IMG/VR virus record: IMGVR_UViG_2531839481_000004 | Coordinates: 1 to 34,202 of that record | Direction: 5' to 3' (one strand) | Origin: a virus | Taxonomy: Duplodnaviria > Heunggongvirae > Uroviricota > Caudoviricetes | DNA: 34,202 bases | Part shown: piece by piece, positions 16,930-26,735 of the stretch | Layout: each line of letters begins with the position of its first letter | How positions within the stretch are numbered: position 1 is the first letter of the stretch | Made by a program: the position numbers and the translations under genes | The notes under the pieces: model-generated | What the model was told of the DNA's origin: nothing | The model's database searches: none | The model's input: only the letters and a program-made list of their open reading frames with translations

Positions 16930-18696
16930 ATGAACACCACACTGACACCCGCAGATCTCGATCCCCGTCGGCAGGCCATGCTGCTGTACTTTCAGGGATA
17001 CCGCGTCGCCCGCATTGCTGAAATGCTGGGCGAGAAAGTTGCAACCGTTCATAGCTGGAAAAAACGCGACAAGTGGGGTGACTATGGGCCGCTGGATCAG
17101 ATGCAGCTCACCACCGCCGCACGCTACTGCCAGCTCATTATGAAGGAGCACAAAGAAGGGAAAGATTTCAAAGAGATTGACCTGCTGGCGCGCCAGTCGG
17201 AGCGCCACGCGCGCATCGGCAAGTTTAACAATGGCGGCAACGAAGCCGACTTAAACCCTAACGTCGCCAACCGCAACAAAGGCCCGCGCCGTCAGCCGGA
17301 AAAGAATGTTTTCACCGATGAACAGATTGAGAAGCTGGAAGAAATATTCCATTCCTCCATGTTCAACTACCAGCGCCACTGGTGGGAAGCCGGAAAAACC
17401 AATCGCATCCGCAACCTGCTGAAGTCTCGCCAGATCGGCGCGACCTTTTACTTTGCCCGTGAAGCCCTGATTGACGCCCTGCTGACCGGGCGTAACCAGA
17501 TTTTCCTTTCTGCCAGCAAGGCTCAGGCTCACGTCTTTAAACAGTACATCATCGACTTTGCCAAAGAAGTAGAGGTGGAGCTGAAAGGCGATCCGATGGT
17601 GCTTCCTAACGGGGCCACGCTTTACTTCCTCGGCACCAATGCCCGCACGGCCCAGAGTTACCACGGCAACCTGTATCTGGATGAATATTTCTGGATACCG
17701 AAATTCCAGGAGCTGCGCAAAGTGGCTTCCGGTATGGCTATTCACAAAAAATGGCGACAAACCTATTTTTCCACGCCATCCAGTCTGACACACAGTGCTT
17801 ATCCGTTCTGGTCCGGTGCGCTGTTCAACCGTGGGCGCAACAAAGCCGATAAGGTGGACATCGACCTGTCCCACAGCAATCTGGCCCCCGGCCTGCTGTG
17901 CGCAGACGGGCAATACCGCCAGATAGTCACCGTGGAAGATGCGGTGCGCGGCGGCTGTAACCTGTTCGACCTTGACCAGTTGCGCATGGAGTACAGCCCG
18001 GACGAATACCAGAACCTGCTGATGTGCGAGTTTGTGGACGATCTCGCGTCCGTGTTCCCGCTCAGCGAGCTGCAGGCGTGCATGGTAGACAGCTGGGAAA
18101 TCTGGACCGACTTTCATGCACTGGCGCTGCGCCCGTTTGGCTGGCGCGAAGTGTGGATCGGTTATGACCCGGCAAAAGGTACGCAGAACGGCGACAGTGC
18201 CGGATGCGTGGTGGTGGCACCGCCAGCCGTACCAGGTGGTAAGTTCCGCATTCTTGAGCGTCACCAGTGGCGCGGAATGGACTTCCGCGCCCAGGCTGAC
18301 GCCATCAAAAAACTGACCGAACAGTATAACGTGACCTACATCGGCATCGACTCAACCGGCGTTGGTCACGGGGTTTACGAGAACGTGAAAGCGTTTTTTC
18401 CTGCCGTCAGGGAGTTTGTCTACAACCCCAACGTTAAAAACGCCCTGGTACTCAAGGCCTACGACATTATCAGCCACCGCCGTCTGGAGTTTGACGCCGG
18501 ACACACCGACATAGCGCAGTCATTTATGGCAATCCGTCGCGCCACCACCGCCAGCGGCAACCGCCCGACCTATGAAGCCAACCGCAGCGAAGAAGCCAGC
18601 CATGCCGATCTGGCCTGGGCAACAATGCACGCACTGTTTAACGAACCGCTGCAGGGCGAGTCCGCCAATACCAGCAATATTGTGGAGATTTTTTGA
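16930..18696 (+). CDS. terminase large (ATPase) subunit gpP
   Basis: 588 aa, synteny, divergent from O. Confidence 0.9.
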   Translation: MNTTLTPADLDPRRQAMLLYFQGYRVARIAEMLGEKVATVHSWKKRDKWGDYGPLDQMQLTTAARYCQLIMKEHKEGKDFKEIDLLARQSERHARIGKFNNGGNEADLNPNVANRNKGPRRQPEKNVFTDEQIEKLEEIFHSSMFNYQRHWWEAGKTNRIRNLLKSRQIGATFYFAREALIDALLTGRNQIFLSASKAQAHVFKQYIIDFAKEVEVELKGDPMVLPNGATLYFLGTNARTAQSYHGNLYLDEYFWIPKFQELRKVASGMAIHKKWRQTYFSTPSSLTHSAYPFWSGALFNRGRNKADKVDIDLSHSNLAPGLLCADGQYRQIVTVEDAVRGGCNLFDLDQLRMEYSPDEYQNLLMCEFVDDLASVFPLSELQACMVDSWEIWTDFHALALRPFGWREVWIGYDPAKGTQNGDSAGCVVVAPPAVPGGKFRILERHQWRGMDFRAQADAIKKLTEQYNVTYIGIDSTGVGHGVYENVKAFFPAVREFVYNPNVKNALVLKAYDIISHRRLEFDAGHTDIAQSFMAIRRATTASGNRPTYEANRSEEASHADLAWATMHALFNEPLQGESANTSNIVEIF

Positions 18697-19724
18697 TGGA
18701 AAAGAGTAAGAAGAACCGCGCTGCGTCGACGAAACAGATCCAGCATAAAAACCAAACTTCAGCCGAAGCATTCAGCTTCGGCGATCCCGTTCCTGTTCTG
18801 GACCGTCGCGAACTGCTGGACTATGTGGAATGCGTACAGATGGATCGCTGGTATGAGCCGCCTGTGAGTTTCGACGGCCTGGCGCGAACCTTCCGCGCCG
18901 CCGTACACCACAGCTCACCGATTGCAGTAAAGTGCAACATTCTGACCAGCACCTATATCCCTCACCCGCTGCTCAGCCAGCAGGCTTTTTCACGTTTTGT
19001 GCAGGACTATCTGGTATTTGGTAACGCCTACCTGGAGAAACGCACGAACCGCTTCGGTGAAGTTATCGCCCTTGAACCTGCGCTGGCAAAATACACCCGA
19101 CGCGGATTAGACCTGGATACCTACTGGTTTGTGCAATACGGCATGACCACGCAGCCGTATCAGTTCACGAAAGGCAGCATTTTTCATCTGATGGAACCGG
19201 ACATCAACCAGGAGATCTACGGCCTGCCAGGCTATCTTTCTGCCATTCCATCCGCCCTGCTCAACGAGTCTGCCACGCTGTTCCGCCGTAAGTATTACAT
19301 CAACGGCAGCCATGCAGGCTTCATCATGTACATGACCGACGCCGCGCAGAATCAGGAGGATGTGAACAATCTCCGCAACGCGATGAAAAGCGCCAAAGGT
19401 CCAGGCAACTTCCGCAACCTGTTTATGTACTCGCCTAACGGCAAAAAGGACGGCCTTCAGATCATCCCTTTGTCAGAAGTTGCGGCGAAGGATGAGTTTC
19501 TGAATATCAAAAATGTCAGCCGCGATGACATGATGGCAGCACATCGCGTTCCGCCACAGATGATGGGGCTTATGCCAAGTAATGTTGGGGGATTTGGGGA
19601 TGTGGAAAAAGCGAGTTTAGTGTTTGTTCGCAATGAGTTAATCCCCCTTCAAAAAAGATTTGAGGAGCTGAATGAATGGATAGAAGAAACAGTAATTAAG
19701 TTTAATGAATATAAATTAAATTGA
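18696..19724 (+). CDS. portal protein gpQ
   Basis: ~343 aa; ATG overlaps the P stop (tgATGg). Confidence 0.9.
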   Translation: MEKSKKNRAASTKQIQHKNQTSAEAFSFGDPVPVLDRRELLDYVECVQMDRWYEPPVSFDGLARTFRAAVHHSSPIAVKCNILTSTYIPHPLLSQQAFSRFVQDYLVFGNAYLEKRTNRFGEVIALEPALAKYTRRGLDLDTYWFVQYGMTTQPYQFTKGSIFHLMEPDINQEIYGLPGYLSAIPSALLNESATLFRRKYYINGSHAGFIMYMTDAAQNQEDVNNLRNAMKSAKGPGNFRNLFMYSPNGKKDGLQIIPLSEVAAKDEFLNIKNVSRDDMMAAHRVPPQMMGLMPSNVGGFGDVEKASLVFVRNELIPLQKRFEELNEWIEETVIKFNEYKLN

Positions 19725-19727
19725 TTA

Positions 19728-19759
19728 ATTCAGTAGTAGCAACTTTAAAGGCGCTACTA
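19728..19759. terminator. bidirectional hairpin between convergent Q and the NTPase gene
   Basis: perfect 10-bp stem cagtagtagc/gctactactg with a 12-nt loop. Confidence 0.4.
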
Positions 19760-19770
19760 CTGAACAAACA

Positions 19771-21435
19771 CTATAAATTGAATTTATGCATTCTTAACTC
19801 ATTCAATTTACTCTCTCTAGAAATCTTCATTAAAGCAGCCTTAGCTTTTATAGAAACAGATCTCGTTTTCTCATTTACATTACCAATACGACTAAATTTC
19901 AGACAAGTAGCAACGTGGGATGTTAAATGATTCCCATGCAAACTTTTAAAATAATGATAATAATCATCTTCAGTAGCGCTACTTAATACTTCTATATCAT
20001 CATCATTCCAGCCATTTTTTCCACTGAGCGCATCCAACACCTCACCTAAAGTGCGCTTGGGTGAATCAGTTAGATACACACCTTTAAATTTCTCAATGAT
20101 TTCTGCATCTTTGATTGGTCTAAAAAGATAAAAATTATCCAGATCAAATAACTCTATTTCACTTCGTCTTTCTTGAATATAATACGTAATCATCTCAGAT
20201 GCCTTTGTATCTTCTCCTAGTTCACGGAAGACCCCAACAAGGCTATCAAGATCATTAGGAGATACTTGAGTTACACAATCCATAAAGCACTTATAAAAAT
20301 GAGAAACAACTTCTTCTACATTATCATCAAAACTATTATGAAATAAATCCCATGCACTTCTAAATGAGTTTGACTTTTTATTTTCTAAAGCCTGTTTATT
20401 TATAATTTTTATTGCCTCATTAAACTCTGTCATATCTATATAACCATTCCTGACTAGCTTTGCTATTTTCCTATCCAGCTCATCAACCCTTGTAAAATTA
20501 TAGCTCAGTAAAATATCCTTCCATTTTTTTTCTTCTTCTGTTACATCCTTTTTGCCTATTGAGTAAATACTTTCCATAGATTCGAGGAAATCCAAAGAGG
20601 GAACATCCTTATCTGATTTAGAGCAATAATAGGCCCAATTCATTAATACAACCGTATGCAAAAATTGCATTTTAACTTCACTTTCGCACTCTTCAAAAGC
20701 TCGCCATGCATTTTCTACGTTTCGCTCTATTTTCTTTAAAACTCTAATATTTTTGATGCCTAACGAAATAGTATATTGTGCTAACGGCTTATGAAAATCC
20801 TTACTATTATCATATGCTATCTGTGCAGATTCACTGGGCGTAGGTGAAAAATGCAACTCAATGTCAATTACTTTTTCTTTAAACTTTTCATAATCAGCAA
20901 CTTCTTTAGTACCATCATTGAGTAAAAGTATAACCTTACATTTCTTTTGTTCTTTTAACAAAGAAATAAGACCTAATACATCTTTAAGTTCTAATGACGA
21001 TCCTTTACGCTCTAAATCATCTATGCAAATTAATGAATCTGACACAGACATAAATGACCATGCTTCTATTGCAGGAGCGGCAGACTTTATATACGGCAGC
21101 TCTTTCAATTTACTCCACGAACCTCGCCCCAATATTTCAAGCATACCTAATGTATTTTTTCTTAAACTATCTAGACTTGGCTCATGTCCTATGGAGTCTT
21201 TTGAAACTGCATTTTCAAAAATGGAATATTTTAATCTATCTAACGAAGATATACCGAAAAGAGAGACATAGGAATAATGCGAAGCAGAAATCATATTTTG
21301 ACACTTTGCTTCCAGAAGAAACTTATTCCAACTAAATGTCTTACCAACTCCCCACTCTCCTTTAATTGCCATAACCGAAGGGGCTGATTTAGAAACAAAG
21401 TTTAGAATTTGTTCTCGTACCAAGCTTAGCGACAT
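19771..21435 (-). CDS. KAP-type P-loop NTPase (554 aa), accessory cargo gene
   Basis: Walker A GEWGVGKT (aa 26-33, nt ~21337-21360), Walker B-like LICIDDLER, no obvious TM helices, AT-rich, ATG with AAGGAG SD. Confidence 0.7.
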   Translation of the reverse strand: MSLSLVREQILNFVSKSAPSVMAIKGEWGVGKTFSWNKFLLEAKCQNMISASHYSYVSLFGISSLDRLKYSIFENAVSKDSIGHEPSLDSLRKNTLGMLEILGRGSWSKLKELPYIKSAAPAIEAWSFMSVSDSLICIDDLERKGSSLELKDVLGLISLLKEQKKCKVILLLNDGTKEVADYEKFKEKVIDIELHFSPTPSESAQIAYDNSKDFHKPLAQYTISLGIKNIRVLKKIERNVENAWRAFEECESEVKMQFLHTVVLMNWAYYCSKSDKDVPSLDFLESMESIYSIGKKDVTEEEKKWKDILLSYNFTRVDELDRKIAKLVRNGYIDMTEFNEAIKIINKQALENKKSNSFRSAWDLFHNSFDDNVEEVVSHFYKCFMDCVTQVSPNDLDSLVGVFRELGEDTKASEMITYYIQERRSEIELFDLDNFYLFRPIKDAEIIEKFKGVYLTDSPKRTLGEVLDALSGKNGWNDDDIEVLSSATEDDYYHYFKSLHGNHLTSHVATCLKFSRIGNVNEKTRSVSIKAKAALMKISRESKLNELRMHKFNL

Positions 21436-21528
21436 AACTCACTCCTTGATTGCGAATGTTAATTATATATTTTACCAAAAATCTTAATCACCACCTATAG
21501 AAAGGTGAAAGATGGGTGCTGGCGCGCG

Positions 21529-21547
21529 CTCGTATCCCCGCCACGCC
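21529..21547 (-). other. candidate cos cohesive-end sequence
   Basis: minus strand GGCGTGGCGGGGATACGAG followed by CGCGCGC; first 13 nt identical to the remembered 186 cohesive end, orientation relative to Q as in P2. Confidence 0.45.
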
Positions 21548-21569
21548 TGCCCGCTTTATGTAGTGGTTT

Positions 21570-21672
21570 TCATGCACCTGCATGTTCTACGTAAAAGCCC
21601 GCTAGTTCTGGCGAGCCTTAGCAAAAACGATCCTTAAACGATCATGCGATTTCATGCAGCATAGTCATGCAC
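21570..21672. repeat. cluster of four TCATGC(A) motifs including the palindrome CATGCACCTGCATG
   Basis: copies at ~21570, 21642, 21652 and 21665; palindrome at 21571-21584. Confidence 0.3.
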
Positions 21673-21869
21673 TGTCTAAGAGAAGTGAAAGTCCGTATCT
21701 GAATGACCACTTGAGAAACGAAACATACAGACTTACAAAGATGAAGCTCTACTGTGAGCGAGGAACATACATAGTTGCTCTGTAATAGCCAAATTTTAAG
21801 CAGGAAATCTCTTTTTTATGACAAAACTATAAAGAAAAACAGACCGTTTCATCGCTCGATGAAAATATA

Positions 21870-23447
21870 CTACAATACTTTTCTCTCGATGGTATTTTTA
21901 ATGGTCAACATATCTTTAGGAATACTTTTTTTCCCCTCTATACGTATGGTAAACACAAAAAGAATAACGGCTGATCTCACAATTTTCATGAGTTGTAAGA
22001 GCTGTTTCTCAAACTTTTCTTTCTCAATAAACCTCACCTCATCAAAAAATCCATAAGAATTATATAAATCAACTAACATGTCTTTCTCGTGAATAACTAA
22101 CAGTTTATGTTCTAAATCATTCCTCCATTCTTTAAAAAAAGCAAGCTCACCATTTTTATCATTCAAATCCATAGCAATACTAAACAAACCCAGCAATCCT
22201 TTATTATTTATTTTGTTTATTTTAAGCTTTCTTTTTTCATCACTAATCCGCCAGAAGTTATGAAAGTATATATGTCCTCTATCTGGTTTTAAATCAAATA
22301 ATTGACACAGAGCAACTGCTATTTTATCCAAGATACCAAAGCAAGCTCTAAATGCAACCCTTAACTTCTCAACATTTTCATACAATATTTCTCCATTATA
22401 CAATTCAGAATAACATACCTCCGAATCCTCATCAAAAAACTCACTATCAACCTTATATTCAAAAAACATTTTTCGTGCTAAGGAATACTCAGCTTTAAGT
22501 CTATTTAACACCATTTCCATTGGCACTATAAAATCACCAAACACACCTTCCTCGGTGGTCGCAATAGTTATATTATCTTTAGATGACGCATAACAATTGC
22601 AATATAGCGAATGATCAGACAACATTAGATTATTATCTATACAAAACCTCTGGTAGTTTGATAAAGTATCATACTCCTCCTGCGTGAGCCTTTCATCTGT
22701 ACTTATATCCTCTATGCCATATACACATGATTCACTCAATATACTTTCGTTGTACTTTATTTTTCTTTGAAGAGCAACCTTCCATGAAGGAAAACATTTC
22801 CCTGACTTTATTGCACACTCATAACCTCGAATAACTTCTTTAATCATTTTATATGTATATGTTGTAGATAATTCATTAAGCAATTCTAATGCCTCAGATC
22901 TGTTTACCCACGCCTGAGGAATTGAGTTATCAATAGATATTGCTTGTTCATAATAATCCATTGATTCAGACATACGATATTGTTTTTTTAATACATTAGC
23001 TAGATTAACTATTAAATCAGGGGGCACCCATCCATCTTCTTGTGAAAGTTTAAACGCTTTCCAGTAATTATTTTTTACATCATTCAGCTTAATGAAACTA
23101 TCAATATCTGCATTGTCATTAGGATTAAAATCAAGAACTGCGCTCATTCCATTTGCCAAGTTATAGTAATATAAGGATTCTTTCATTATAGTCAGAAATT
23201 CATTTTTATTGTTTATAAAGATATTTAAGCCTTCCTCCGCTATATTTTTTACATTACTAAAATTTCCGATATCAATAAGATTTCCGGCCAAATTAGATAA
23301 TATAATTATTCTATTTTCTTTGATTGTATTTATCTCATCGATACCGTTAAGAATATCCTTTACATTTTTATAGGCAGAATCAAATGAACCTGCATTAATA
23401 AGATCATCTACGACCCCCATTTTTGAAACAACATAGTTGATATCCAT
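21870..23447 (-). CDS. 525-aa protein with helical-repeat N-terminal region and C-terminal HEPN-like domain (Rx4H motif WRNDLEHK), accessory cargo gene
   Basis: ATG with AGAGGA SD; strongly AT-rich; R442-x4-H447 motif (nt ~22107-22124); occupies the tin/old position between cos and A. Confidence 0.65.
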   Translation of the reverse strand: MDINYVVSKMGVVDDLINAGSFDSAYKNVKDILNGIDEINTIKENRIIILSNLAGNLIDIGNFSNVKNIAEEGLNIFINNKNEFLTIMKESLYYYNLANGMSAVLDFNPNDNADIDSFIKLNDVKNNYWKAFKLSQEDGWVPPDLIVNLANVLKKQYRMSESMDYYEQAISIDNSIPQAWVNRSEALELLNELSTTYTYKMIKEVIRGYECAIKSGKCFPSWKVALQRKIKYNESILSESCVYGIEDISTDERLTQEEYDTLSNYQRFCIDNNLMLSDHSLYCNCYASSKDNITIATTEEGVFGDFIVPMEMVLNRLKAEYSLARKMFFEYKVDSEFFDEDSEVCYSELYNGEILYENVEKLRVAFRACFGILDKIAVALCQLFDLKPDRGHIYFHNFWRISDEKRKLKINKINNKGLLGLFSIAMDLNDKNGELAFFKEWRNDLEHKLLVIHEKDMLVDLYNSYGFFDEVRFIEKEKFEKQLLQLMKIVRSAVILFVFTIRIEGKKSIPKDMLTIKNTIERKVL

Positions 23448-23688
23448 TCAATCCTCTTTAAACTAAGCTAATAATACCAATCATTATATGGATGAGATCA
23501 ATATAGAACATGCCATCTCCGGCAAAAATCGTACTACATCAGACCAGTGCCCTTCAAATAATATAAATTGAACTTAGATACTTCTGCTTCAACCAGTGTG
23601 TTAAATCCATCGCTTGAACTCAGAACAAAAAGCGGACGATCACTTATCAAAATGGCCGTCCACCTAACGCCTCGTTTCACTCGTTGCC

Positions 23689-23725
23689 CAAAATAGTCCC
23701 CCATCAGAATGAATCCTCTTGGGGG
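23689..23725 (-). terminator. possible terminator after the DinI-like gene
   Basis: ccccc-N18-ggggg hairpin followed on the minus strand by actattttg. Confidence 0.3.
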
Positions 23726-23734
23726 CAACGTTTC

Positions 23735-23968
23735 TTAATGCAGCCAGCTGTCGTCTTCCCACACCTTCTGCATAATTTTCATCACTTGCTTCCTTTCTTC
23801 GTCCAGTTGCAGTCCGGTTAGTTCCACACCGTTAGAGCTACCTTTGCGAATGCGAATTACCGTTTTGGGATACAGGGGGCGCAGATTGCGGTAAAGCTCG
23901 GATTCAAGGGCGTCCAGGGTAGACTGGCTAATCTTCTGCTCTTTATCGATCATTATTTCAATGCGCAT
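23735..23968 (-). CDS. DinI-like protein (77 aa)
   Basis: MRIEIMIDK...LDALESEL...QKVWEDDSW resembles E. coli DinI; ATG with GAGGTGA SD. Confidence 0.75.
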   Translation of the reverse strand: MRIEIMIDKEQKISQSTLDALESELYRNLRPLYPKTVIRIRKGSSNGVELTGLQLDEERKQVMKIMQKVWEDDSWLH

Positions 23969-23978
23969 AAAAGTCACC

Positions 23979-24167
23979 TCAGCTGATGACATCCATTGAG
24001 CGGTTGTATTCGTGGGTTCTGATTTTTGCCATGAGTTCATCTGTTAGTTCAGAAACCCACTGCAAAGCCAGCCCCTTCTCTTCATCACTACACTCACTAG
24101 CCGCTACAAGCTTAAGAAAAAAATCAATGCGCTGGAGCTTCAAAGACTCCAAAAAATAGTCCTGCAT
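23979..24167 (-). CDS. small protein (62 aa) under a LexA box, tum-like SOS module
   Basis: ATG with AGGAGG SD 5 nt upstream; LexA box 44-59 bp upstream. Confidence 0.5.
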   Translation of the reverse strand: MQDYFLESLKLQRIDFFLKLVAASECSDEEKGLALQWVSELTDELMAKIRTHEYNRSMDVIS

Positions 24168-24320: not shown

Positions 24321-26735
24321 TTAATACAGGTTTCGCCACTTATCATCTTCCTGCAAACGCTGGTTCCGATAGAAGATACGCAGGCCTGCTCCTGACGGAA
24401 TACTGCCGCCGCGAAGGAGTAAATCGACCTCTTTCTCGCTGCCATTAAATCCTCTGGACTTCAGTTCATAGACGAGCTGCTGTCGCTGATGGTCTGTAAT
24501 TCGCTGTTTGTAGTCTTTACGCCGTTTCGGTTTCACCAGGCGTAACCTTGCAGCCAGTTCCCTGCGCTCTTTTTTGCTCATACTGTGCAGGTAATCGTGC
24601 AACTCCTTGTCATCCATGCGGATAATGTCCGTTCTGGTGTCCCCATCAGCTGATTTATCTTTCTCCTGTTGGTTCAAATTTTCAGCAAGGGGACAGTTAT
24701 TGCCACGAGTCCAAGGGGCGCAAGCGCCCTGGTCGGCTGCCGCCTCCTGAACGTCAACGGCCTTACGAACCATTTTCCACTTCACGGCATGAGTGCAGAT
24801 TTTGCCCTCTGCAATGGGTGACCAGATGCCATAAATACGAATGCCGTGATCGCCATAGGCGGTCGGCTCTTCGTTGATTTCATAAGCGGTTCTGATGAGG
24901 TGATATTTACGGGGAACCAGTACGCCGCCCTGCTTCATGATGTAGGTGGCAAAACAACCAGCATCAGCTGCAGCCAGAATGGCATCAAGGCGCGGGTTAT
25001 CCAGTACCGGCGCACCTGCTTTTTTGTCACCCTGTTGCCTTGCCGCCTGACCAGCCAGCAATCGCAGTTCACGGTAAGCCTGACGCCCCGGAATGCCAAA
25101 GAAGCGGAATTGCTGAACACGATGCAGAGACGCCCAGGCATTAACGTATTCAGCGTTATCACGCAGAGATTTACCCGTTTCCTTGCTGATCTCGCCAGCC
25201 AGACCACGCCCGTCAATGTTCTTACTGATGTATTTCGCGATGTAGCTAGTCGGCGTTCCTTTGCGCGGGTTTATCAGCTCAGACTTAAAGCGTGGCCCCG
25301 TGTTATTACCCAGCTCCTCGCGGTCTTCACGGATAGCAAACTTACGCAACAATGCAGTAATGGCGCGGCGGTCTTTTTTGCGCATGAAACACAACAGGTG
25401 CCAGTGAACTGTGCCGTCATGATGCGGCTCAGCCACCCGCACGCCATACCAGCGCAACCCGGCTTTGTGCATCGCCTTACGAAATGCAGCAAACATGCCG
25501 ACCAGATAATCACTGCTTTGTCTTACCGTCGCATTTGTCCAGGTCGGGTTGGGCCTACCGTTATTTAGCGTGGAATGGAAACGTGACGGACAGGTGATGG
25601 TGTAGAAAACGGCGCAGTCACCGCGCATTTCCGCGATAAGCTCCAGACCTTTAACACAGGCCATCATCTCATTGCGGCGATGCGCAGGGTTGCTGCTGCT
25701 GGCGTTTACCACATCCTCCATGTCCAGCGTGTCGCCGTCTTCGTTCACCAGTTCATGAGAACGGAAAAACTCCAGCGACTTACGGCGCTGCTCACGTTTA
25801 TGCATCACGGCTTCATAGCTGACATAGGGAGATGCTTTTTTGCTGACCAGGCAAACAGCACGCAACTGCTCTTCCCGCCATTCGCAACGCATCTTCCACA
25901 ATTTCCGATACCACCAGTCGGCGCACAGCATACGCGCCAGCGACCCCGGAATGAGTTCATAGGGCACGGGTTTACGGCGGTTTCTTTTCCGGCGGAGTTG
26001 CTCAAACGCAGGCGGTATGACATCCAGTCGCAGGGTTTCCGCCGCCACCTTTTCCCATGTCTTGCGGATTTCTTCTGGCTTAACGTCATCGGTGGCATAC
26101 AAATCGCCACAAGCGGCATCAAGGCACATGCTCATATGCGCAGCTACCAGGGTGGACAGGCGTTTCACCTGATCCTGACTCATTTCAGGCAGGATCAGCA
26201 GACCGTCCAGCCCTTCATGGCTTGCCATAAAGCGAAAAGAAGTGGATAGCTGACTGTCGCGTACATGCTCCAGTCGTTCCAGACATGGCTTAATCGTCTC
26301 ACGCAAATAGCGGGAATAAGCCTTTGGCCTGCCCAGGCTGCTGAAGTATTCAATACGTTGCATCAGCGGCTTGCTGATATGGGAAGGCTGGGCGTTAACG
26401 TCCGCCAGAATGACCATGCCCGGATTAAAACGCTGCTGCTCATGCGCCAGCTTTGCCCGGCTAATGAGCTTATCCTGCTCCATTTCGCGCTGGACAGGAT
26501 CACGTGATTCATTAAAGAAATAACGCTCCCATACCTGATCACTCAGAGCCTCGCGGCGCAGTTGTTCCTGCTCGTTATCGGTAGCGTACAGAGTGATCAG
26601 GTTTGAAAGCGCAGAAACCGGCGCAACTTCCGCCGGGTCCAGATAAGGGTTAATGGCCTTTTTCGGGCTGTTCCATGAGAATGCTGCGGCGACCTCGTTA
26701 AAGCCGCTGCAGTTGTTCATATCAGCATGGCTCAT
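24321..26735 (-). CDS. replication initiation protein A (rolling-circle nickase, P2 gpA family)
   Basis: [13 protein letters not shown] and [13 protein letters not shown] motifs shared with P2 A. Confidence 0.9.

Follow-up and report, generated by a model that had tools for sequence, protein, structure and literature searches.

A KAP NTPase gene and a TPR-HEPN gene on either side of cos in a P2-like Escherichia coli prophage are probably independent cargo

Introduction

Two candidate defence genes that lie next to each other on a mobile element raise the question of whether they act as one system or were brought together as separate pieces of cargo. This question is posed by the P2-like (Peduoviridae) Escherichia coli prophage contained in a 34,202-nucleotide stretch of DNA (IMG/VR record IMGVR_UViG_2531839481_000004, Caudoviricetes), the whole of which is called the window here and in which the prophage runs opposite to the standard P2 map. 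A preliminary description had the gene of a 525-amino-acid (aa) protein reading towards the cohesive-end site (cos) and a nucleoside triphosphatase (NTPase) gene reading away from it, on the same strand and 434 bp apart, and the open reading frames (ORFs) confirm this layout:

19771-21435, minus strand: gene of a KAP-family P-loop NTPase, 554 aa, reading away from cos and filling the slot on the Q side
21436-21869: interval between the cargo genes, exactly 434 bp
21517-21751: conserved cos core, about 235 bp, with the cohesive-end site, TGCAT repeats and a dyad; shared boundary of both slots
21870-23447, minus strand: gene of a protein with TPR repeats and an LA2681-type HEPN domain, 525 aa, reading towards cos and filling the slot on the gpA side

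The same description had offered two readings of the pair, a two-component module of HEPN effector and NTPase sensor coupled by read-through, or two independent morons. The second reading is borne out by independent assortment of the two genes, with breakpoints at the edges of the cos core, and KAP and HEPN are in all probability independent single-gene morons in separate slots and not a two-part system. The coupled module is contradicted by this assortment as well as by the portability of the HEPN cassette, by KAP genes without HEPN, by the TPR domain that the HEPN protein carries itself, and by a co-orientation that is generic to the family.

Co-occurrence of the two cargo genes

The region and its flanks (19700-23500) were searched against 5,426 complete E. 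coli genomes. Both genes are present in two of these, which are 99.7-100% identical over the region and are probably one lineage. Nine genomes have the HEPN half only, at 99.4-99.7% identity and in a match that begins at 21517-21523, within a few bases of the cos 19-mer; a single genome has the KAP half only, in a match that ends at 21670. On the Q side, the HEPN gene is partnered by DUF262 with IS2, by retron Ec67, by AIPR or by a small hypothetical gene, while the A-side cargo of the KAP-only prophage is an HNH endonuclease; at least six cargo combinations are found between flanks that are 87-99% identical. A more sensitive search added 128 genomes with diverged KAP-family genes, none of which has the HEPN gene, and a strain of sequence type 131 carries a diverged KAP gene in the same Q-side slot and in the same orientation with other A-side cargo.

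The same picture is obtained outside E. coli. A 93%-identical KAP protein is encoded in Salmonella P2-like prophages beside different A-side cargo (its cluster has 426 member sequences), so that KAP is found downstream of three different A-side cargoes, and homologs at 62% and 48% identity are solitary genes in chromosomal islets of Serratia and Pseudomonas. A Pseudomonas island and a Tn7-like element of Vibrio encode homologs of the HEPN protein at 41-43% identity. When all 26 fetched loci were compared by tblastn, KAP and HEPN were found together only in the window's own copy; among 120 cos loci from other species KAP was found once, without HEPN, and a phage database has relatives of KAP in nine records and of HEPN in none. 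The conserved co-occurrence expected of a two-component system, which the preliminary description had named as a check, is not seen, and the pair is confined to one near-clonal lineage (2 of the 5,426 genomes).

The Vibrio element deserves a separate remark. In Vibrio parahaemolyticus (locus L026, 5001-8487) the 41%-identical HEPN homolog is followed 41 bp on by a co-directional gene of 622 aa, the product of which has no Pfam match and is not a relative of KAP by tblastn, and a Cap4-nuclease gene lies nearby.

Two cargo slots separated by the cos core

The gene order, from the ORFs and in agreement with the RefSeq annotation of an identical locus, is P, Q, KAP, cos, HEPN, DinI-like, small hypothetical and gpA. 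Two of these genes serve as anchors:

18693-19724, plus strand: gpQ portal gene, conserved, left anchor of the Q-side slot; an identical E. coli prophage has the annotation 'phage portal protein' here
23735-24040, minus strand: DinI-like gene (Pfam DinI, E-value 1.3e-22), conserved, right anchor of the gpA-side slot

Homology with other P2-like prophages at the Q end stops at 19679-19697, and homology with prophages bearing other A-side cargo restarts at 23725-23732. The breakpoints between them fall at 21517/21522, 21670/21673 and 21752. The cos core itself is common to about 1,270 of the E. coli genomes, and of the 1,282 records that match, the majority are confined to window positions of about 21515-21765. 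Across species, 22 of 37 loci have no cargo in the gap on the Q side (159-222 bp), in the other 15 this gap contains 0.6-4 kb of cargo, and the gap on the A side measures 0.5-4.2 kb and varies independently of it. The hotspot therefore has two cargo slots bounded by conserved anchors, the content of which is exchanged independently, with one self-contained gene in each.

Orientation is equally regular in this family. In a species-wide sample (loci L027-L146), the direction of reading is away from cos for 23 of 29 Q-side cargo ORFs and towards it for 32 of 39 A-side ones, which means that gpA, cos and cargo usually form a co-directional array convergent with Q. As co-orientation is the norm, the same-strand layout of KAP and HEPN carries no evidential weight for the pair. 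The first ORFs on the Q side often begin just 71-180 nt beyond cos.

An example of such proximity is given by retron-Ec67 P2-like prophages (NZ_CP010229, locus L148, 3396-3535; also locus L004), where the reverse transcriptase gene begins about 105 bp from the cos core. The msr/msd sequences must fill this gap, and the promoter should therefore lie in or across the cos core; a search of Rfam gave no match to a retron msr beside cos in the retron-Ec67 prophage. RefSeq marks a 64-aa hypothetical ORF across the cos core of these prophages.

The cos site and its repeats

The cos-like motif of the preliminary description is, by alignment, a genuine P2-type cos with predicted 19-nt 5' cohesive ends. 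In P2 orientation it reads AAGCGGGCA, then GGCGTGGCGGGGATACGAG, then CGCGCGC:

21529-21547, minus strand: predicted 19-nt cohesive-end sequence (cosN) GGCGTGGCGGGGATACGAG, from alignment with P2 cosL/cosR and the P4 ends

The site aligns to the annotated P2 cosR/cosL, GGCGAGGCGGGGAAAGCAC, and to the ends of P4; it is identical with P2 at 13 of the 19 positions, between the conserved flanks AAGCGGGC and GCGCGC. A pattern of the 22-nt core occurs once in the window and in none of 100 shuffles, even with three mismatches allowed. Because cos is real and lies between both slots, the two genes sit at opposite ends of the linear virion DNA, KAP at the Q/portal end and HEPN at the gpA end, and come to lie next to each other only once cos is joined or in the prophage, as had been proposed. 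This geometry is trivially true for any cos phage with cargo on both sides.

The cluster of TCATGC repeats also withstood closer examination. Four copies lie on the plus strand, at 21570-21575, 21642-21647, 21652-21657 and 21665-21670 (TGCATGA on the minus strand). The hexamer occurs 25 times in the window, which is not above chance; four copies on one strand within 101 nt were obtained in 0 of 2000 random placements. P2 and P4 carry TGCATGA repeats at the same offsets from cos as the window. In 113 distinct cos regions fetched from other species, comprising P2-like, P4-like and some unassigned elements, TGCAT lies at offsets of -124/-120, -111, -101 and -29 from the cohesive end, and 96 of these regions have three to five copies per 130 nt versus 0.19 expected. 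The cos homology of P2 and P4 described in the classical literature spans 55 bp, and the repeats fall outside it. Since P2 and P4 share essentially just the cos region and are packaged by the same terminase, the TGCAT repeats are most likely sites of terminase recognition or part of the packaging signal.

Between these repeats and cos lies a second conserved element:

21593-21619, minus strand: dyad or hairpin AAGGCUCGC..GCGGGCUUUU, folding energy -14.9 kcal/mol

Its consensus in 56 cos regions of P2-like and P4-like elements is CGCCAGnnCTGGCGCGG, with pairing in 70.8% of cells versus 31-45% in slid registers, and its outer pairs covary (for example CG 23, GC 12, UG 9). A U-tract accompanies it on the strand that is sense for transcription from HEPN to cos. 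The element may be either a terminator or a protein-binding palindrome; on this strand it is terminator-like, and it would limit transcription into cos. P2 itself is without this dyad. Two GATC (Dam) sites 11 bp apart, at 21629-21632 and 21640-21643, are conserved in a sub-lineage (GCATGATCGTTTGAGGATCG in many loci), and a Dam-type methylase is encoded beside gpA in P2-like prophages that have the two conserved sites in the cos core.

The interval as a whole had been called free of ORFs. This is nearly correct: at a cutoff of 40 aa there is none on the minus strand, and on the plus strand just two short ORFs lie wholly inside (41 aa, 21512-21637; 43 aa, 21654-21785) and a third of 93 aa (21775-22056) begins in the interval and extends antisense into the HEPN gene. 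A structured RNA had been considered earlier, no reverse transcriptase or other partner being seen; the search of the 434-bp interval gave no Rfam match at an E-value of up to 1 and an unexceptional folding energy (minimum free energy z-score -1.05; 17 of 100 shuffles fold as well or better). A structured RNA or retron-type element in the interval was rejected on these two grounds.

The TPR-HEPN protein and its cassette

The 525-aa protein matches Pfam HEPN_LA2681 (PF18733) with 132.4 bits against a cutoff of 27, residues 309-504 covering profile positions 9-204 of 204, and also gives weak matches to Pfam TPR models. R442, N443, E446 and H447, which form the Rx4H motif (RNxxEH), are invariant in 15 homologous sequences at 38-83% identity. 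The AlphaFold2 model has a mean predicted local distance difference test score (pLDDT) of 84 and a predicted template modelling score of 0.85, and consists of an N-terminal TPR superhelix and a C-terminal HEPN domain. With a sensor-like TPR region fused to an RNase-like HEPN domain, the protein is complete in itself, and it is a candidate single-protein abortive-infection RNase that would be triggered via the TPR region. PADLOC has no system model for it, only weak TPR and Csx1/Csm6 matches being obtained, and no characterised member of the LA2681 family was found in the literature searched, where a single paper names the family. The 'HEPN-TPR' of Rousset 2022 (pFR83) was tried as a relative and set aside, as there is no significant similarity between the two. 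In E. coli ECONIH5 (locus L006, 5352-6925) the HEPN copy has a frameshift near the C-terminus, for which RefSeq gives a shortened protein.

The gene travels with its flanks as a unit:

21752-23528, minus strand: portable TPR-HEPN cassette, 1,777 bp, made up of the gene together with flanks of 81 bp (5') and 118 bp (3')

At 83-86% nucleotide identity, this cassette is present on an Enterobacter chromosome (loci L010-L013), where it sits between housekeeping genes, and in a Salmonella lambdoid prophage (loci L014-L015), where it adjoins the antiterminator Q gene; both are without KAP. The 5' flank (23448-23528), with a TATAAT at 23488-23483 and a TTGYCGGARATGGCA dyad, is kept in all three contexts, and the 3' flank has a conserved block, CTGCTTAAA..GGCTATTACAGAGCAACTAT. 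As its flanks are conserved in three contexts, the cassette is a portable moron, and the flanking blocks are possibly its recombination or regulatory ends. A hairpin at 21847-21864, after the HEPN stop codon, was considered as the terminator of the cassette and dismissed, as it is not conserved in the Enterobacter and Salmonella copies.

The KAP NTPase and its cassette

The 554-aa protein matches Pfam KAP_NTPase (PF07693) with 23.9 bits against a cutoff of 20, and the model PDC-S49, which PADLOC treats as a candidate single-gene system, with an E-value of 1.1e-29, the alignment covering profile positions 28-397 of 624. NCBIfam gave no match for this protein or for the HEPN protein. Among 14 homologs at 47-93% identity, the Walker A motif G26-T33 (GxxGxGKT, with K32) and the Walker B residues D139/D140 are invariant, and the homologs are conserved along the full length of the protein. 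The AlphaFold2 model (pLDDT 78) resembles ORC/Cdc6, TnsC and NLR-type ATPases, and a fold search with it returned only generic AAA+/STAND matches with low template modelling scores. Transmembrane helices in or after the NTPase domain are frequent, though not universal, in the KAP family. This protein has no transmembrane-like stretch (maximal Kyte-Doolittle mean over 19 residues 1.13), and its insert at residues 79-124 is modelled as a low-confidence, non-hydrophobic helical region. On these features KAP is a candidate single-gene defence protein.

Upstream of the gene, the AT-rich stretch that had been called promoter-like was examined by direct reading and by a scan:

21436-21516, minus strand: KAP-specific upstream region, AT-rich, with TATAAT and Shine-Dalgarno sequence

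Reading the minus strand reveals a perfect TATAAT at 21467-21462, overlapping TGGTAAAAT, and an AAGGAG Shine-Dalgarno sequence at 21447-21442; in the Salmonella copy and in that of locus L091, an AT-rich block with TATAAT or TATAGT lies at the same position upstream of KAP. A consensus scan for sigma-70 sites found none of at least 9/12 on the minus strand of the interval. The earlier assignment is therefore weakly supported, by the reading and not by the scan, and the region is probably KAP's own candidate promoter. The scan for intrinsic terminators likewise found none on the minus strand of the interval, the sole terminator-like call being on the plus strand at 21551-21566, beside cos. At the other end of the KAP gene there is a strong hairpin:

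19729-19764: hairpin where the Q and KAP genes converge, with a perfect stem of 12 bp, terminator-like whichever way it is read

It folds at -20.8 kcal/mol on the minus strand and -19.4 kcal/mol on the plus strand. The hairpin belongs to the variable KAP cassette, not to the conserved Q region, and it is absent from prophages with other Q-side cargo.

A model of two independent slots

The observations can be accommodated by a model in which the cos core splits the gpA-gpQ hotspot into two independently exchanging cargo slots. The Q-side slot would swap by recombination between the 3' end of Q and the cos core, and the gpA-side slot by recombination between the cos core and the DinI-like gene. 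Each cassette would be self-contained, bringing along a ribosome-binding site of its own, flanking hairpins and a -10-like element. TPR-HEPN would be a sensor-effector fusion in which the TPR region binds a phage or cell protein and the Rx4H site of the HEPN domain cleaves RNA, aborting the infection, while KAP, by comparison with F-plasmid PifA and the KAP systems of the P4 hotspot, may be a STAND/NLR-like, nucleotide-switched sensor that works on its own. We infer anti-phage roles for both proteins together with these mechanisms, separate promoters for the two genes and terminase binding to the TGCAT repeats.

Several findings weigh against this model. The fold search recognised no effector domain in the KAP model, which, taken alone, fits a sensor that needs a partner. 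The scan gave no strong sigma-70 consensus promoter for either gene, and the hairpin just 3' of the HEPN stop codon is not conserved elsewhere, so that some read-through across cos may occur. The exact KAP allele is found in three complete E. coli genomes, two of which also have HEPN; this is a small and probably clonal sample in which the association is not negligible. The defence role of both genes rests on domain content and location, and one of the additional tested systems without reported activity in Rousset 2022 (PMC9122126) is NOD-1, which is KAP-like and distantly related (27% identity over 243 aa).

Alternative explanations

The alternative that survives best, although it is unlikely, is transcriptional coupling without functional dependence: transcripts from a HEPN promoter or from the early gpA operon would cross cos into KAP in the prophage or the circular genome. 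The genes for gpA, the small hypothetical protein, the DinI-like protein, HEPN and KAP all lie on the minus strand in an array that ends at the strong hairpin before Q, and coupling is also favoured by the prevailing co-orientation on both sides of cos, by the short distance from cos to the first Q-side ORFs, by the little room that the Ec67 reverse transcriptase gene leaves for msr/msd and a promoter, and by the lack of a canonical KAP promoter in the scan. Against this stand the covarying dyad with its U-tract, which lies between HEPN and cos in sense orientation, the AT-rich block of KAP with TATAAT/TATAGT at a fixed position in diverged copies, and the position of KAP downstream of three different A-side cargoes. 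If coupling were true, the expression of Q-side cargo would depend in part on an intact cos.

It is somewhat more doubtful still that one or both genes are not anti-phage at all and are decaying passengers, addiction genes or genes with other lysogenic-conversion functions. In favour of this, the ECONIH5 copy of HEPN is frameshifted, the hotspot also carries partition systems and toxins (Rousset 2022, PMC9122126), and NOD-1 and the unrelated HEPN-TPR appear there only in the table of additional tested systems, without reported activity. On the other hand, the catalytic motifs are invariant down to 38-47% identity, which points to purifying selection on both genes; they recur beside integrases in islands, in the Tn7-like element with the Cap4 nuclease and at moron positions of prophages; KAP matches a PADLOC candidate-defence model; and single-gene KAP systems of the P4 hotspot were recently validated (Reve, PMC13586616).

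In an improbable variant, Q-side cargo such as KAP and retron Ec67 would be transcribed, in whole or in part, from promoters on the far side of cos, and would be expressed only from the cos-joined genome, circular or integrated. The cos core and its conserved dyad would serve as a regulated insulator between the slots, and the joining of cos would itself switch on some of the defences that the phage carries.

The least probable is a two-component defence module in which KAP detects infection and switches on the HEPN RNase, or vice versa, with the two kept together across cos: the same-strand position 434 bp apart, a KAP protein without recognisable effector domain, the HEPN gene in two of three complete E. 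coli genomes with this KAP allele and the fact that NTPase-plus-nuclease pairs are common among defence systems count in its favour, but close relatives of the prophage and distant contexts alike carry one gene and not the other, the two genes have separate boundaries of recombination at the cos core, the HEPN cassette is portable by itself, its product has its own TPR domain and both co-occurring genomes are probably one lineage, so that the missing co-occurrence largely refutes it.

Comparison with known systems

In P2-like phages, the stretch from gpA to gpQ next to cos is a published anti-phage hotspot, with 1,650 arrangements in 18,150 loci and P2 old/tin as prototype (Rousset 2022, PMC9122126), and was confirmed by later work. 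Table S5A of this study already contains the exact gene arrangement of the window, with accessions annotated in an identical genome, and lists the HEPN protein with other partners as well, for instance AAA_15/AAA_21. The layout is ordinary for P2-like phages and, with the hotspot published and the arrangement catalogued, of low novelty. The window shares with P2 the position of its cargo between A and Q beside cos, in a hypervariable, AT-rich region that often holds anti-phage genes. In P2, however, the gpA side holds both old and tin, for which transcription leads away from cos, with a promoter about 150 bp from cosR, and the Q side is empty (168 bp from cos to Q), whereas in the window both sides are filled and the cargo reads in the direction from gpA to Q. 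The hotspot literature treats the region as one locus, while the data presented here resolve two slots parted by the cos core. Retron Ec67 sits where KAP does, in the Q-side slot and in the same orientation, and in strain ECCTRSRTH03 it lies beside the same HEPN cassette, but as a reverse transcriptase with a non-coding RNA it is unrelated to KAP NTPases.

The HEPN protein resembles HEPN abortive-infection RNases (LA2681 family, Anantharaman et al. 2013) in its C-terminal HEPN domain, the invariant R-N-x-x-E-H and the mobile defence contexts, and may be likened in function to RloC/PrrC, AbiD/F and the HEPN domains of Csm6/Cas13. It differs in its N-terminal TPR region, which suggests sensing of a protein as opposed to control by tRNA, an ATPase or cyclic nucleotides.

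PDC-S49, Reve (PMC13586616) and NOD-1 are single-gene P-loop or KAP-type proteins in P2 or P4 hotspots, like the KAP protein of the window. NOD-1 shares the motifs GEWGVGKT and IDDLER with it, and Reve is likened to it by description, not by sequence. No paper mentioning PDC-S49 was found in the literature search. The best functional analogy for the 554-aa protein, drawn without a sequence comparison, may be PifA.

PifA of the F plasmid we take to be a KAP-family P-loop NTPase on a mobile element that acts alone and excludes T7 by abortive infection. It is said, by Aravind et al. in 2004 and in the pif literature, to be the founding bacterial KAP NTPase.

Composition of the locus

Beyond the slots lie two further genes of the phage backbone:

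16930-18696, plus strand: terminase ATPase gene P
24321-26735, minus strand: replication gene A (gpA)

The guanine-plus-cytosine content drops from about 0.55 to about 0.30-0.36 over 19501-21500 and 22001-23500, and is 0.40 in the bin at 21501-22000, which includes the cos core. A 100%-identical locus is present in E. coli AF5 (NZ_OZ547033), where RefSeq labels the two cargo proteins 'P-loop NTPase fold protein' and 'LA2681 family HEPN domain-containing protein'.

Implications

The TGCAT repeats may define a packaging signal that extends past the 55-bp cos homology, which is relevant to the design of P2/P4 cosmids. Both cargo proteins, the PDC-S49-like KAP NTPase and the LA2681-family TPR-HEPN protein, are portable single-gene candidates. 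Catalogues that treat the region from gpA to gpQ as one locus would resolve its systems better if it were split at cos. The pair is also a caution, in that candidate defence genes lying side by side in a hotspot can mimic a two-gene system; here, they are in all probability independent cassettes joined by recombination at the cos core.

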